Shown here piece after piece: positions 15,247 through 53,046 of a stretch of 64,000 nucleotides of DNA (the stretch's first letter is position 1; each line of letters opens with the position of its first letter). A program made the translations under genes and the position numbers. The DNA is from Octopus vulgaris. Its lineage: Eukaryota. The stretch is from NCBI GenBank assembly GCA_951406725.2, contig OX597821.1, positions 79,918,001 to 79,982,000 of the forward strand, in the 5' to 3' direction. A model generated the notes under the pieces. It was given only the letters and a program-made list of their open reading frames with translations. It searched no databases and had not been told where the DNA came from.

Positions 15247-16425
15247 CTAGCATTAAAGACCCGTCGTGGCCGGGTCATAGTGCTAGTGCATGTATATATG
15301 TGTATATATATGTGTACATATTACATATACATCTACACATAAAATACAAAATACAAAGTTATATCTTGATATCGCTAGTGATAACAATTCGCAAAATATA
15401 TAACAGACTGGAGTTGTTAGCCCGTCTCTTGTAATTTCAATCAATTGTATCTTGTCCTCCCTCTTGTATAGAAGTGTGGCTACGATCCAGACTACCTCTA
15501 CTTCGGGGGGGGGGGGGGCATTTAAAATTTTTTCCGGGACGTCCTACGTCTCAGATATAAAGGTAAAAATAAAATATTTCCAGTTTGCAAGGTTCGAGTC
15601 GAGTCCCTTGCACGCTCCGTTGACTCGAACCTTGCTTCTATTGTGGCGAATTTACCGCCTCTGATTAGATACCTTTCATAGTTGCACCAAGACACTTTTC
15701 GAAGGTGCTTTCCTCCATGTGTTCAAATCTTTTTTTCTCTACATTGTATACTTTATAGACAATAGTCTTTTCTTTAATTTAATTTTTTATTATCCATCTG
15801 ATCTATTCCATTTCTGCACGCTAATTTTATTTTTAATTTATTCCCATTCATGTGAAACCACTGATTCAAGTTCAAATCATTGATGCAATTTTATACCAAT
15901 TGCTATTTTTACTTTTGTTATGTTACGATTATATTATACTTTAGTTTGATTTTAATTATTACTTACAACATATAATTCAATTGTTATTATTATTTTTATT
16001 GTTAAAGTGAAAGCATCTGACATAAAATAGAGAAATGTTTTTGTTTCACTTTTAACACGAAATACTGAAATAGTGGAGAAGATATGATATTGCTATGGGC
16101 TCGCTCTAGGCAAGAAGTTGAACATTTTTTTGCCCATGAAACTACATGGACCCTAAGTAAGGCATGTGTAAAATTTGAATGGAATTGGTTGTGTAGTTCT
16201 CAAGTTTTAGGGAATCGTAATGGAGAAGATATGATATTGCTATGGGCTCGCTCTAGGCAAGAAGTTAAAAATGTTTTTTGCCGATGACACTCCCCGGAAC
16301 CTAAGTAAGGCATGTGTAAAATTTGAATGAAATTGGTTGTGTAGCTCTCAAGTTTTAGGGAAAGACACAGACAGACAGACAGACAGACAGACACACACAC
16401 ATTCTCAGTTTTATATATATAAAGA
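15247..16425 (-). mobile_element. Non-autonomous Helitron-like element
   Basis: Minus strand starts TCtttatatatataaaa followed by a microsatellite, and ends with hairpin gacccggc-cacga-cgggtc about 8 nt before CTAG, flanked A|T. Contains an internal ~147-bp duplication (16075/16222). Confidence 0.7.
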
Positions 16426-36855: not shown

Positions 36856-36890
<35 letters not shown>

Positions 36891-36972
36891 CATACATACA
36901 TATTTATATATACATACATATATATATATGTATATATACATATATATATATATGTATATATACATATATATA

Positions 36973-37033
<61 letters not shown>

Positions 37034-37095
37034 GTATATATACACATATATATATATATGTATATATACACACATATATATATATATGTATATAT

Positions 37096-37150
<55 letters not shown>

Positions 37151-37429
37151 TTAATAAGGGTGAGAGAATTAGATACTAATTTAATAGTATATTTATTCCA
37201 CACCAAGTGGCCTAGTGCTACGAGAAACCTGGATTATTATAATATTTTATAACATATTATAATATTTTCACAAAATAAATATAAGAGAGTGTTCACTATA
37301 TTGATCACTCTAGCACCAGTTAATCCAAGAGGTTTCAACCACGAAAAATACATGTTTCCCATGAAAGCCGGTACGACTGTTAGCTCACACGGACAGGGCA
37401 AATAAAAAATAACAAAAATACAGATTATT

Positions 37430-37505
37430 TTGGGACAATTGTTTCGCTATTAATGAATTAAATGTAATATTACTTACAGTAATCCATTTGTAGCTCTTCA
37501 GCCAA
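37430..37505 (-). ncRNA. Type I hammerhead ribozyme, copy 1
   Basis: Reverse complement of 39210-39285. Confidence 0.88.
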
Positions 37506-37963
37506 GACTATCTGGATGAAATCCACTCAATCACACGCCAGATTTTACCATAACGATAAATACGCGTGCGGTTCAATTGATTACATCGGACGTTATAATT
37601 CAAATGCCCCAACCAACAGCGCGCCAAATTCTCACGGAAAACAAATACAGCATTTAGAAATAAATGCAGCATAATTATAATTAATTAATAAGGGTGAGAG
37701 AATTAGATACTAATTTAATAGTATATTTATTCCACACCAAGTGGCCTAGTGCTACGAGAAACCTGGATTATTATAATATTTTATAACATATTATAATATT
37801 TTCACAAAATAAATATAAGAGAGTGTTCACTATATTGATCACTCTAGCACCAGTTAATCCAAGAGGTTTCAACCACGAAAAATACATGTTTCCCATGAAA
37901 GCCGGTACGACTGTTAGCTCACACGGACAGGGCAAATAAAAAATAACAAAATTACAGATTATT

Positions 37964-38039
37964 TTGGGACAATTGTTTCGCTATTAATGAATTAAATGTA
38001 ATATTACTTACAGTAATCCATTTGTAGCTCTTCAGCCAA
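37964..38039 (-). ncRNA. Type I hammerhead ribozyme, copy 2
   Basis: Copy 1 shifted by +534. Confidence 0.88.
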
Positions 38040-38497
38040 GACTATCTGGATGAAATCCACTCAATCACACGCCAGATTTTACCATAACGATAAATACGCG
38101 TGCGGTTCAATTGATTACATCGGACGTTATAATTCAAATGCCCCAACCAACAGCGCGCCAAATTCTCACGGAAAACAAATACAGCATTTAGAAATAAATG
38201 CAGCATAATTATAATTAATTAATAAGGGTGAGAGAATTAGATACTAATTTAATAGTATATTTATTCCACACCAAGTGGCCTAGTGCTACGAGAAACCTGG
38301 ATTATTATAATATTTTATAACATATTATAATATTTTCACAAAATAAATATAAGAGAGTGTTCACTATATTGATCACTCTAGCACCAGTTAATCCAAGAGG
38401 TTTCAACCACGAAAAATACATGTTTCCCATGAAAGCCGGTACGACTGTTAGCTCACACGGACAGGGCAAATAAAAAATAACAAAAATACAGATTATT

Positions 38498-38573
38498 TTG
38501 GGACAATTGTTTCGCTATTAATGAATTAAATGTAATATTACTTACAGTAATCCATTTGTAGCTCTTCAGCCAA
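38498..38573 (-). ncRNA. Type I hammerhead ribozyme, copy 3
   Basis: Copy 1 shifted by +1068. Confidence 0.88.
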
Positions 38574-39209
38574 GACTATCTGGATGAAATCCACTCAATC
38601 ACACGCCAGATTTTACCATAACGATAAATACGCGTGCGGTTCAATTGATTACATCGGACGTTATAATTCAAATGCCCCAACCAACAGCGCGCCAAATTCT
38701 CACGGAAAACAAATACAGCATTTAGAAATAAATGCAGCATAATTATAATTAATTAATCTGTATTTTTGTTATTTTTTATTTGCCCTGTCCGTGTGAGCTA
38801 ACAGTCGTACCGGCTTTCATGGGAAACATGTATTTTTCGTGGTTGAAACCTCTTGGATTAACTGGTGCTAGAGTGATCAATATAGTGAACACTCTCTTAT
38901 ATTTATTTTGTGAAAATATTATAATATGTTATAAAATATTATAATAATCCAGGTTTCTCGTAGCACTAGGCCACTTGGTGTGGAATAAATATACTATTAA
39001 ATTAGTATCTAATTCTCTCACCCTTATTAATTAATTATAATTATGCTGCATTTATTTCTAAATGCTGTATTTGTTTTCCGTGAGAATTTGGCGCGCTGTT
39101 GGTTGGGGCATTTGAATTATAACGTCCGATGTAATCAATTGAACCGCACGCGTATTTATCGTTATGGTAAAATCTGGCGTGTGATTGAGTGGATTTCATC
39201 CAGATAGTC

Positions 39210-39285
39210 TTGGCTGAAGAGCTACAAATGGATTACTGTAAGTAATATTACATTTAATTCATTAATAGCGAAACAATTGTCCCAA
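39210..39285 (+). ncRNA. Type I hammerhead ribozyme, copy 4
   Basis: ttgg-CTGAAGA-gcta[caaatggatt...aattcattaa]tagc-GAAA-caattg-TC-ccaa: intact core, GUC triplet, predicted cleavage after 39281. Confidence 0.9.
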
Positions 39286-39743
39286 AATAATCTGTATTTT
39301 TGTTATTTTTTATTTGCCCTGTCCGTGTGAGCTAACAGTCGTACCGGCTTTCATGGGAAACATGTATTTTTCGTGGTTGAAACCTCTTGGATTAACTGGT
39401 GCTAGAGTGATCAATATAGTGAACACTCTCTTATATTTATTTTGTGAAAATATTATAATATGTTATAAAATATTATAATAATCCAGGTTTCTCGTAGCAC
39501 TAGGCCACTTGGTGTGGAATAAATATACTATTAAATTAGTATCTAATTCTCTCACCCTTATTAATTAATTATAATTATGCTGCATTTATTTCTAAATGCT
39601 GTATTTGTTTTCCGTGAGAATTTGGCGCGCTGTTGGTTGGGGCATTTGAATTATAACGTCCGATGTAATCAATTGAACCGCACGCGTATTTATCGTTATG
39701 GTAAAATCTGGCGTGTGATTGAGTGGATTTCATCCAGATAGTC

Positions 39744-39819
39744 TTGGCTGAAGAGCTACAAATGGATTACTGTAAGTAATATTACATTTAATTCATTAAT
39801 AGCGAAACAATTGTCCCAA
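39744..39819 (+). ncRNA. Type I hammerhead ribozyme, copy 5
   Basis: Identical to copy 4, shifted by +534. Confidence 0.9.
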
Positions 39820-40277
39820 AATAATCTGTATTTTTGTTATTTTTTATTTGCCCTGTCCGTGTGAGCTAACAGTCGTACCGGCTTTCATGGGAAACATGTA
39901 TTTTTCGTGGTTGAAACCTCTTGGATTAACTGGTGCTAGAGTGATCAATATAGTGAACACTCTCTTATATTTATTTTGTGAAAATATTATAATATGTTAT
40001 AAAATATTATAATAATCCAGGTTTCTCGTAGCACTAGGCCACTTGGTGTGGAATAAATATACTATTAAATTAGTATCTAATTCTCTCACCCTTATTAATT
40101 AATTATAATTATGCTGCATTTATTTCTAAATGCTGTATTTGTTTTCCGTGAGAATTTGGCGCGCTGTTGGTTGGGGCATTTGAATTATAACGTCCGATGT
40201 AATCAATTGAACCGCACGCGTATTTATCGTTATGGTAAAATCTGGCGTGTGATTGAGTGGATTTCATCCAGATAGTC

Positions 40278-40353
40278 TTGGCTGAAGAGCTACAAATGGA
40301 TTACTGTAAGTAATATTACATTTAATTCATTAATAGCGAAACAATTGTCCCAA
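40278..40353 (+). ncRNA. Type I hammerhead ribozyme, copy 6
   Basis: Identical to copy 4, shifted by +1068. Confidence 0.9.
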
Positions 40354-40505
40354 AATAATCTGTATTTTTGTTATTTTTTATTTGCCCTGTCCGTGTGAGC
40401 TAACAGTCGTACCGGCTTTCATGGGAAACATGTATTTTTCGTGGTTGAAACCTCTTGGATTAACTGGTGCTAGAGTGATCAATATAGTGAACACTCTCTT
40501 ATATT

Positions 40506-40729
<224 letters not shown>

Positions 40730-40739
40730 GTATATATAA

Positions 40740-42017
40740 GGACGATATGCAAATGTAGTGCGCAGTAACCCAACAAATGGCCAGCTTCACCCAGATGTGA
40801 GAAGGGCAGCAGCTGAACAGCAATCTTTTTTGTGCATGGCACAAAAAATTGTTCAGCAGCTGACCTGGCTACAAGCATAAAGCTGGAACTACTACCACAT
40901 AAGGCCACCACCAACAGATGCAGGATGGCCACCACAGACACCAACACACACACCACAAAAATATTTCTACTGAACGTAGGAGGGCTACTGCGCGGCAACT
41001 TTAAAAGGAAAATCTCATTCCTGAGAGACCTTGTGACATGCAATCAAGCCGTATGCATGGCACTCACAGAAACGCATCTCGGACCCGATATAGGGGATGC
41101 AGAAATACACATGCCGCAATATGCAGTCATACGCTCAGATAGAAAAGGGAGGAGCCATGGTGGAGTTGCAATGTACATCCGAGATGACTTCACGCCCCAG
41201 GTCCTGTTGTCATATTCAAACTCAGTGTGTGAAACTCAAATTGTACACATAAGACAACTGAATATCGTCATATGCACTACATATCGCCCACCAGATGCCC
41301 CAAATCACTCAGGCATGTTTGAAGACTGCCTAACAAAAATAGGAGAAGTCCTCACCAACCTTAAACAACACAGCAGTGTATTCTTCATGGGTGACTTTAA
41401 CTTCCCCAATGTGGAATGGCCTGGCGGGCAGATGCACTCAGGGATGACACACCATCAGCCGACACCATCAGCTGCTCCATCTCACAAATGCCTCTTTCAT
41501 GGAGCAAATAGTTCTGCAACCAACAAGGGCAGATAATATACTGGATCTCTGCTTCACAAACAATATGGATATTATCCATAATGTTAAAGTGATGTCGACA
41601 ATGATCTCGGATCACAACATAATAGAGCTGTCTATGTATGGACCAAAAACCCCGTAGACACACAGCCTATACGAAGCATCCACCATCTCTCCAACTTAAA
41701 ATTTCATAAAGCAAACTGGAAGTTGATTGAGAAAGAGATCCTCAAACAGGATTGGCCTGAATGTCTCACCACTCCGGACATAAACATGAAACACAAACGT
41801 TTCATGTCCATAATACAAGCCATATGTAACAAATATGTCCCAGTGTGCAGGGCCAGCACACACAAAAACAAAAGCAGGATCCCTAGAGAAAGGAAGATTC
41901 TTATGAGACGACGGACAAGGATTGCGAACCGCCTGAGCAAGCACACCAAAAGTGGTGAGAAGTCTCGGCTCGAGAGAATGCTAATGGAAATTGAAAAAAG
42001 TCTGCATCAGTCCCATG
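40740..42017 (+). pseudogene. CR1-group LINE: ORF2 AP-endonuclease domain and linker (frameshifted), probable ATG at 40925
   Basis: APE motifs LLNVGGL, ALTETHL, RSDR...GGVAMYI, YRPPD, MGDFNFP, ILDLCFTN and SDHNII; then FHKANW linker. Confidence 0.9.
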
Positions 42018-42052
42018 AAAATTTTCTAGTTACAGTCATTCATCAGGTGGTT

Positions 42053-42099
<47 letters not shown>

Positions 42100-52494: not shown

Positions 52495-53046
52495 TTTGGA
52501 GAGGGAGCCAGTGATTAGATCGACACCAGAACGCAACTGGTACTTAATTTATCGTCCCCGAAAGGATGAGAGGCAAAGTCGACATCGGCGGAATTTGAAC
52601 TCAGAACATAAAGACAGACTAAATACATATTTCTTTACTGCTCACAAGGGGCTACACACAGAGTGGACAAACAAGGACAGACAAACGGATTAAGTCGATT
52701 ACATCGACCCCAGTGCGTAACTGGTACTTATTTAATCGATACCGAAAGGATGAAAGGCAAAGTAGACCTCGGCGGAATTTGAACTCAGAACATAACGGCA
52801 GACGAAATACCTAGTTCTATACTACCCACAAGGGGTTAAACACAGAGTGGACAAACAAGGACAGACAAACGGATTAAGTCGATTACATCGACCCCAGTGC
52901 GTAACTGGTACTTATTTAATCAATACCGAAAGGATGAAAGGCAAAGCCGTCCTCGGCGGAATTTGAAACTCAGAAGGTAGCGGCAGACGAAATACTGCTA
53001 AGCATTTCGCCCGGCGTGCTAACGTTTCTGCCAGTTCGCCGCCTTT
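52495..53046 (-). mobile_element. SINE family A trimer
   Basis: Three ~185-bp internal modules followed by the head ...gccagttcgccgccttt. Confidence 0.85.

Follow-up and report, generated by a model that had tools for sequence, protein, structure and literature searches.

The window analysed here, a 64,000-nucleotide stretch of Octopus vulgaris DNA, contains a 3,366-bp insertion (37146-40511) that lies between two (TA)n tracts and is built from a 534-bp unit carrying a predicted hammerhead ribozyme. The units form two arms that meet head to head, the outer ends of both arms adjoin (TA)n, and the junction between the arms falls close to the predicted ribozyme cleavage site. This locus raises the question of what set the ends of the insertion. 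A first-pass annotation had placed the start of the plus arm at about 38754, 7 nt past the equivalent of the cleavage C, in head-to-head arrays whose outer 3' ends abut (TA)n at differing phases of the unit. These coordinates and this layout were confirmed, with arms overlapping by TAAT and outer ends at phases 288 (37146) and 162 (40511). Phases are numbered along the 534-bp unit, phase 1 being window position 39282, which directly follows the predicted cleavage C (C39281; cut between GAAACAATTGTC and CCAA). Because of the TAAT overlap at 38754-38757, the start of the plus arm was placed at phase 7-11. The plus arm (38754-40511) was identical to the unit throughout, and the minus arm showed a single mismatch to it, at 37952. 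With one differing base across both arms, the insertion is regarded as very young. Contig pieces of four sequencing runs over 38505-39005 had joints of ordinary unit sequence, and none of the 30 listed among 1,885 bridged the junction, which is uninformative either way.

Features of the retrozyme insertion and its flanks (positions in the window)
Feature	Position	Strand	Remarks
Left (TA)n target microsatellite	36858..37145	.	TACA/TATG interruptions
Left arm	37146..38757	-	1612 nt = 3 laps + 10 nt of the 534-bp unit
Left arm ends			outer 3' at phase 288 (site B, 37146); inner 5' at phase 279-282 (38757)
Hammerhead motif, minus arm	37430..37505	-	predicted cleavage C at 37434
Hammerhead motif, minus arm	37964..38039	-	predicted cleavage C at 37968
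Hammerhead motif, minus arm	38498..38573	-	predicted cleavage C at 38502
Inversion junction	38754..38757	.	4-nt microhomology TAAT, common to both arms
Right arm	38754..40511	+	1758 nt = 3 laps + 156 nt
Right arm ends			inner 5' at phase 7-11; outer 3' at phase 162 (site A, 40511)
First copy of the ~126-nt 'tail'	38910..39035	+	site A (phase 162, 38909) to site B (phase 288, 39035)
Hammerhead motif, first plus copy	39210..39285	+	predicted cut after 39281
Hammerhead motif, second plus copy	39744..39819	+	predicted cut after 39815
Hammerhead motif, third plus copy	40278..40353	+	predicted cut after 40349
Right (TA)n target microsatellite	40512..40738	.

Each full unit carries a type I hammerhead motif consisting of stem I (UUGG/CCAA), CUGAAGA, stem II (GCUA/UAGC), GAAA, a short palindromic stem III (CAAUUG) and GUC, and six intact motifs are present in the window. 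The ribozyme was identified by its motif and stems; a search of Rfam gave no hammerhead match at the gathering score or at E ≤ 5. The constrained (active) fold was calculated at −14.7 kcal/mol compared with a minimum free energy (MFE) of −16.0 kcal/mol, that is, 1.3 kcal/mol above the MFE, and the cut site was identical in 384 of 391 sampled motifs. No stop-to-stop frames of 80 aa or more were found within the arms except two that enter from the TA flanks, the GC content of the arms was 0.29-0.34 (below 50%), and a search of the window for Penelope-like element (PLE) proteins gave no match. Since the unit lacks an ORF and the window lacks a PLE protein match, the family was not filed as an autonomous PLE. 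With tandem units that each carry a type I hammerhead, no coding capacity, a GC content below 50% and target duplications longer than 4 bp, the 534-bp family qualifies as a new non-LTR retrozyme on those features open to testing in sequence, its self-cleavage being predicted. At least three further hammerhead families with different stems were seen near TA tracts (at L144 and L085, and at L124, L097, L133, L235 and L244).

In order to place the locus among its relatives, 171 other loci were taken from the 2.8-Gb genome (172 including the window). Of these, 51 were chosen by a match to the unit or the ribozyme and not by their ends (the unselected set), and 120 were chosen by one end abutting TA, on two contigs (C1 and C2). 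The exact site-B pattern occurred 842 times in the genome; the family therefore numbers at least 842 copies, of which the sampled loci are a minority. The 172 loci were scored as 104 two-arm, 66 one-arm and 2 complex copies, the last of which (L082 and L153) were set aside. L167 and L169 were removed as duplicates of L105 and L080 as a duplicate of L079; in these groups the insertions are duplicated together with their flanks, by segmental or assembly duplication. L124 was also removed, since what looked like its second arm is an internal palindrome. With sequence from neighbouring stretches, L154 and L158 were completed and L197 was recognised as a two-arm copy. The final set comprised 166 loci with 267 arms, among them 101 distinct two-arm copies, with about 60 copies showing just one arm. 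Seven 5' ends were set by hand, and an eighth (the plus arm of L147) was set by hand in the later tallies only.

The outer 3' ends were located at two fixed phases, A (about 162) and B (about 288, with the mode at 288). In the unselected loci, 81 of 86 arms ended within phases 155-166 (A) or 277-300 (B), and 80 of 86 abutted TA. One arm ended at A and the other at B in 96 of the 101 two-arm copies, where L039 was scored as A from its exact-match end at 163; no copy was A/A or B/B, and in the remaining five (L037, L077, L105, L181 and L193) one arm ended elsewhere. The same pairing was seen in 33 of 35 copies not chosen by their ends and in all three loci added later. Furthermore, five apparently one-armed copies carry a cryptic second arm of 13-18 nt, always of the complementary type, and a 12-nt AT-only B-like match next to the B arm of L116 was unclassifiable. 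The differing outer phases noted in the first-pass annotation are thus far beyond chance and represent two fixed sites, one per arm, a pattern that it had missed. Target duplications measured 14 bp (L062), 16 bp (L041) and 19 bp (L191), and that at L039 was 15 bp by eye (11 by the script); the duplication of the window's own insertion is unreadable within pure (TA)n. Since L062 and L039 lie in non-TA DNA and their ends are still at 163/290 and 289/163, sites A and B appear to be set by the RNA rather than by pairing with the target. The stretch between them, delimited by the histogram of end phases, recurs every 534 nt, and the stretch matching 38910..39035 one lap on gave a fold z of −1.98. 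This footprint matches the Penelope 'tail', which is bounded by two reverse transcription start sites, here about 126 nt long and in a non-LTR retrozyme. At the inner junctions (n = 100), the arms overlapped by at least 1 nt in 63 copies, were blunt in 16 and were separated by inserted bases in 21. In L100 (654-1247), the same small fold-back is found at both arm ends, and 156 bp of TA repeat separates the arms.

The sequences of the laps bear on the template. Variants carried by every lap of both arms accounted for 642 calls, compared with 9 arm-specific calls at 4 loci (five of them in L118). In addition, 10 variants unseen in the other sampled loci filled all 3-6 laps of both arms at 9 loci; 'unseen' here refers to the 166 loci sampled out of 842 or more copies. 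In the 43 loci with at least three full laps, 308 variants were fixed, 114 were confined to a single lap, 16 were present in all laps but one and 16 were intermediate. The dominance of all-lap and single-lap variants across many haplotypes indicates that most transpositions pass through a monomer bottleneck, most simply a circular RNA. L118 and L049 are less well explained by a monomer circle than by two templates, a multimer or later conversion. L049 (3691-6427) carries a cut-site variant with loss of GUC in the second lap of both arms that matches the junction sequence, as would be given by an in-register multimeric template or by conversion from the junction. In-register lap variants were clean in L049 only, the others being mixed or likely homopolymer artefacts. 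No parent-daughter pairs, in which one mutated unit is fixed in the daughter, were found, the five candidates all having unlike haplotypes. Taken with the 96 paired fixed ends, the haplotypes shared between arms and the 14-19 bp target duplications support the earlier proposal of priming from both sides of a (TA)n break on a circular or multimeric template. The A and B outer ends likely record the work of a Penelope-type enzyme that, at a DNA break, copied a single RNA from either side.

The arms run up to 12 laps, and either may be the longer: the A arm exceeded the B arm by more than 200 nt in 31 of 96 pairs, and the B arm exceeded the A arm by more than 330 nt in 24. In 19 of 96 pairs, the two arms stopped in the same lap at template positions within 30 nt of each other, compared with 3.7 pairs in permuted data (0 of 10,000 permutations as high). 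This excess came from short-armed loci (18 of 62, compared with 1 of 34 in the long set). Stops at the same position with A one lap further were found in 6 of 96 pairs, compared with 1.4 permuted (p = 0.0016), a class that was spotted in the data before being tested, whereas stops with B one lap further were not enriched (2 compared with 1.5). The same-lap and A-one-lap-further classes fit the two ways in which two reverse transcriptases can meet on a monomer circle; fold-back of a cDNA predicts both classes too.

The locus thus represents a non-coding retrozyme that was inserted recently and whose arms end one at A and one at B. Based on these data, we consider it probable that this arose through twin priming from A and B on one, probably circular, RNA by a Penelope-like, probably Hydra-clade, reverse transcriptase-endonuclease. 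In an earlier step, the ribozyme would make monomers that circularise, and the insertion ends would not be set by it. The enzyme would cut (TA)n on both strands, and one ribonucleoprotein would seat each target 3'-OH on its own start site, perhaps with one protomer of a dimer per site. Each of the two cDNAs would be started at a different site, A or B, of one shared and probably circular RNA, and both reverse transcriptases may travel round this template, giving multi-lap arms. The two cDNA ends would then be joined via microhomology (TAAT in the window) and filled in. The stops of reverse transcription would be mostly arbitrary, with about a quarter of the pairs at the same template position, as if the reverse transcriptases had met or the RNA had ended.

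The first-pass annotation had further read the junction as a footprint linking ribozyme cleavage to insertion, and had named breakpoints strewn along the unit as an observation that would speak against this link; such a spread is essentially what was found. When stops were compared phase by phase with the arms at risk, the 5' ends in the 166 loci were consistent with an even spread (27 phase windows, 265 arms; chi2 = 31.5, df = 26, p = 0.21), the arms having passed the cut site 475 times as against 9 stops within 10 nt of it (5.2 expected). There was also no enrichment of 5' ends at site A (8 compared with 10.6 expected) or site B (10 compared with 10.3). The inner junction is not a general footprint of cleavage, and the nearness of the window junction to the predicted cut is most likely chance. 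A junction set by cleavage would have mattered, and it was not borne out. It is unlikely, in our estimate, that an A-primed reverse transcriptase left the ribozyme-made 5' end of a linear RNA and that the window junction marks cleavage. Such run-off could account for the weak excess of 5' ends in phases 1-20 (19 arms compared with 10.4 expected, P = 0.010) and for the 6 of 19 same-lap pairs that stop within 30 nt of the cut. Several copies end strikingly at the cut, namely L147 at phase 1, L193 at phases 1 and 4 (both arms) and L049 at phase 2, so that a small run-off class may exist; both arms of L100 end at phase 6. However, the excess was offset by a deficit in phases 21-40 (4 compared with 11.2), leaving 23 compared with 21.6 in phases 1-40, and it was absent from the unselected set (4 compared with 3.4). 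Closer to the cut, the counts were 3 compared with 1.6 in phases 1-3 (P = 0.21) and 9 compared with 5.2 in phases 1-10 (P = 0.085), and the number of loci with an arm ending in phases 1-10 (7 of 166) was near chance. A T-rich tract at phases 14-35 can move apparent ends towards 13-14, the window's own plus arm passed the cut site three times before stopping, and ribozyme cleavage was unnecessary for insertion in vitro (PMC11167929).

Other readings concern the priming and the template. If a single cDNA were primed, fold-back or a template jump would give the inverted arm, and the second fixed end would be an endonuclease cut made in resolution or the product of antisense self-priming; versions of this have been proposed for PLEs as antisense self-priming (PMC3846280) and as endonuclease resolution that makes the tail (PMC8557442). 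It predicts both near-symmetric stop classes (19 and 6 of 96) as well as palindromic junctions such as those of L032, L047, L166 and L186. On the other hand, the end positions are unrelated in about 70 of the 96 pairs, and one arm, be it A or B, may be far longer than its partner (63 compared with 6699 nt in L034); fold-back would need additional jumps to copy these. Insertions with A alone and with B alone both occur, and reverse transcription in vitro starts at two internal sites that bound the 30-40-nt tail of Anolis Poseidon PAc (PMC11167929). We assign single priming a low probability. A template without an RNA circle, either a linear multimeric transcript or an array grown after insertion by unequal exchange, is rather doubtful. 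The in-register variant in lap 2 of both L049 arms and the 16 intermediate-frequency variants would suit it, as would slow cleavage by a monomeric ribozyme whose active fold lies above the MFE; the predominance of all-lap and single-lap variants over intermediate ones argues against it, and the excess of A-one-lap-further but not B-one-lap-further stops fits a monomer circle. Near-identical inverted arrays within simple repeats are hard to assemble, and the junction might thus be an assembly or fold-back read artefact. This is highly improbable, since the arms are not mirror images (phases 279 and 7 inside, 288 and 162 outside) and about 100 independent loci spread over many contigs have the same A/B architecture, in some cases together with target duplications. 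Within the favoured twin priming on one RNA, a more specific proposal is made tentatively: a dimer of the Penelope-like enzyme may seat both cut strands on two non-equivalent sites of the circular retrozyme RNA, with the reverse transcriptases chasing each other round the circle and their collisions being recorded. If so, the recorded collisions would be those of B catching A in the same lap and of A catching B one lap on, and one mechanism would account for the tail of PLEs, for head-to-head inversion and for the arrays of tandem units in animal retrozymes.

Animal retrozymes have been defined, their circles shown and PLEs named as candidate partners (PMC7229834), and retrozymes have been tied to PLE pLTRs by sequence, with local tandem amplification favoured and the mechanism left open (bioRxiv 10.64898/2026.07.22.740005). 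Like the metazoan non-LTR retrozymes of both reports, the octopus family has non-coding, low-GC tandem units, a type I hammerhead in each and long target duplications when visible, and mobilisation by PLEs has been proposed. Its unit of 534 nt compares with RNAs of 170-400 nt (PMC7229834) and with consensus sequences of 51-972 bp (bioRxiv 10.64898/2026.07.22.740005). Insertion ends, head-to-head copies, fixed start sites and (TA)n targeting are unmapped in the accessible text of these two reports. A search that lay largely outside subscription papers turned up no report of paired ends or of head-to-head copies among retrozymes; the supplements of PMC11167929 (Fig. S2) and PMC8557442 may show end pairing.

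PLEs have inverted pLTRs, 8-10-bp target duplications and palindromic junctions (PMC3846280), and their tail is often present at one end only (PMC8557442). The Penelope-like PAc protein, for which a dimer is predicted, cuts and extends both strands in vitro, and the two strands showed no difference in where it starts, a result that tells against the present model (PMC11167929). The retrozyme resembles the tail and inverted 5' pLTR of PLEs in its two alternative 3' ends and its inverted, 5'-truncated arm, and it shares with them a tail that is often one-ended, AT-rich targets, target duplications and a dispensable ribozyme cleavage (PMC3846280, PMC8557442, PMC11167929). Unlike PLEs, it has no ORF, runs up to 12 laps and has a tail of about 126 nt rather than 30-40 nt. 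In addition, its one-A-one-B pairing is near-strict (96 of 101, with no same/same copy), in contrast to PAc, for which no strand difference in start site was seen in vitro. Through the A/B rule, a feature known from PLEs is carried over to an element that is non-coding, spans several laps and has an unusually long tail. In L1 twin priming, both target ends prime on one RNA, the first at the poly(A) end and the second at an arbitrary internal site, and the resulting 5' inversion is joined by microhomology, its segments lacking overlap. The two sites of the retrozyme are both internal and both fixed, and the same sequence is copied over and over in the arms. The formation of PLE tails and inverted ends and the return of retrozyme circles to DNA have been stated as open questions (PMC8557442, PMC7229834, bioRxiv 10.64898/2026.07.22.740005). 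For these, the present family offers at least 842 insertions, a near-strict one-A-one-B rule and evidence for a single shared template, and the in vivo counts favour twin priming on one, probably circular, RNA, which we regard as quite probable. Being short and free of ORFs, with 126 nt between its two start sites, it is a substrate on which the choice between twin priming and fold-back or resolution can be directly tested, in the genome and in the existing in vitro assay. In addition, the link that it gives between a retrozyme and PLE machinery is an integration footprint, not a likeness of sequence.

Candidate partner enzymes were sought among the PLEs of the same genome. A young Neptune-like family (L232-L247) has a 781-aa ORF with RVT_1 plus a GIY-YIG domain at its C terminus, an upstream frame, up to 479 aa long, that overlaps it, a pLTR of about 500 bp, TA targeting and a 38-nt tail, and both of its two inverted copies pair a tailed end with a tailless end. 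A hammerhead pattern search of this family gave no match, and it was rejected as the partner on sequence, having no likeness to the unit and a tail of only 38 nt. Hydra-like PLE families are abundant (L252-L311; L210:120-572) and have a hammerhead, a tail of about 100 nt and an asparagine-rich stretch before the endonuclease. They encode reverse transcriptase and GIY-YIG pieces, with listed open frames of 766-947 aa. The hallmarks of the Hydra clade, as defined in PMC8557442, are a C-terminal GIY-YIG, an RWK-like motif, a CxCX5C linker, CxxC and CxH motifs, a hammerhead and a (TA)n target. L252-L311 are Hydra-like as judged by motifs, namely a GIY-YIG match, RWR, CQLC and CIH, with a linker (YNC-x5-C-x5-C) that is not an exact CxCX5C. 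The retrozyme shares with Hydra-clade PLEs (PMC8557442) and with L252-L311 the (TA)n targeting, stem I (UUGG/CCAA), a palindromic stem III, a long tail (about 100 nt in the PLEs), a site A ending in TTATTTTG and A/B pairing. The Hydra-like ends lie at +35-37 and +136 from the cut and were paired in all seven two-arm copies (29 distinct loci). L252-L311 differ in carrying reverse transcriptase and GIY-YIG pieces and in the position of their sites (+35 and +136, compared with +162 and +288 in the retrozyme). The two ribozymes aligned with a score of 52-61, compared with a maximum of 40-42 in 500 shuffles, a score that includes the conserved core, whereas no significant likeness was found between the tails (p = 0.30), the stem II interiors (p = 0.10) or the upstream sequences (p = 0.61). 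No ORF-linked copy of the unit was found by tblastn on the fetched loci, among 30 Hydra-like loci or by two ribozyme-variant patterns. Judged from these sequence features, a Hydra-clade PLE is a likely candidate for the partner of the retrozyme, and likely at most, because the A/B rule and the ribozyme layout are shared and the tail and stem II do not align.

Other repeats are present in the window. A broken non-LTR (LINE-type) fragment with an Exo_endo_phos domain, unrelated to the retrozyme, occupies 40817-42055 on the plus strand, immediately to the right of the right (TA)n tract. Tandem dimers and trimers with units of 148-184 bp were found at 767-1134, 16074-16362 and 52513-52995, and two of them resemble a common short interspersed repeat of the genome.
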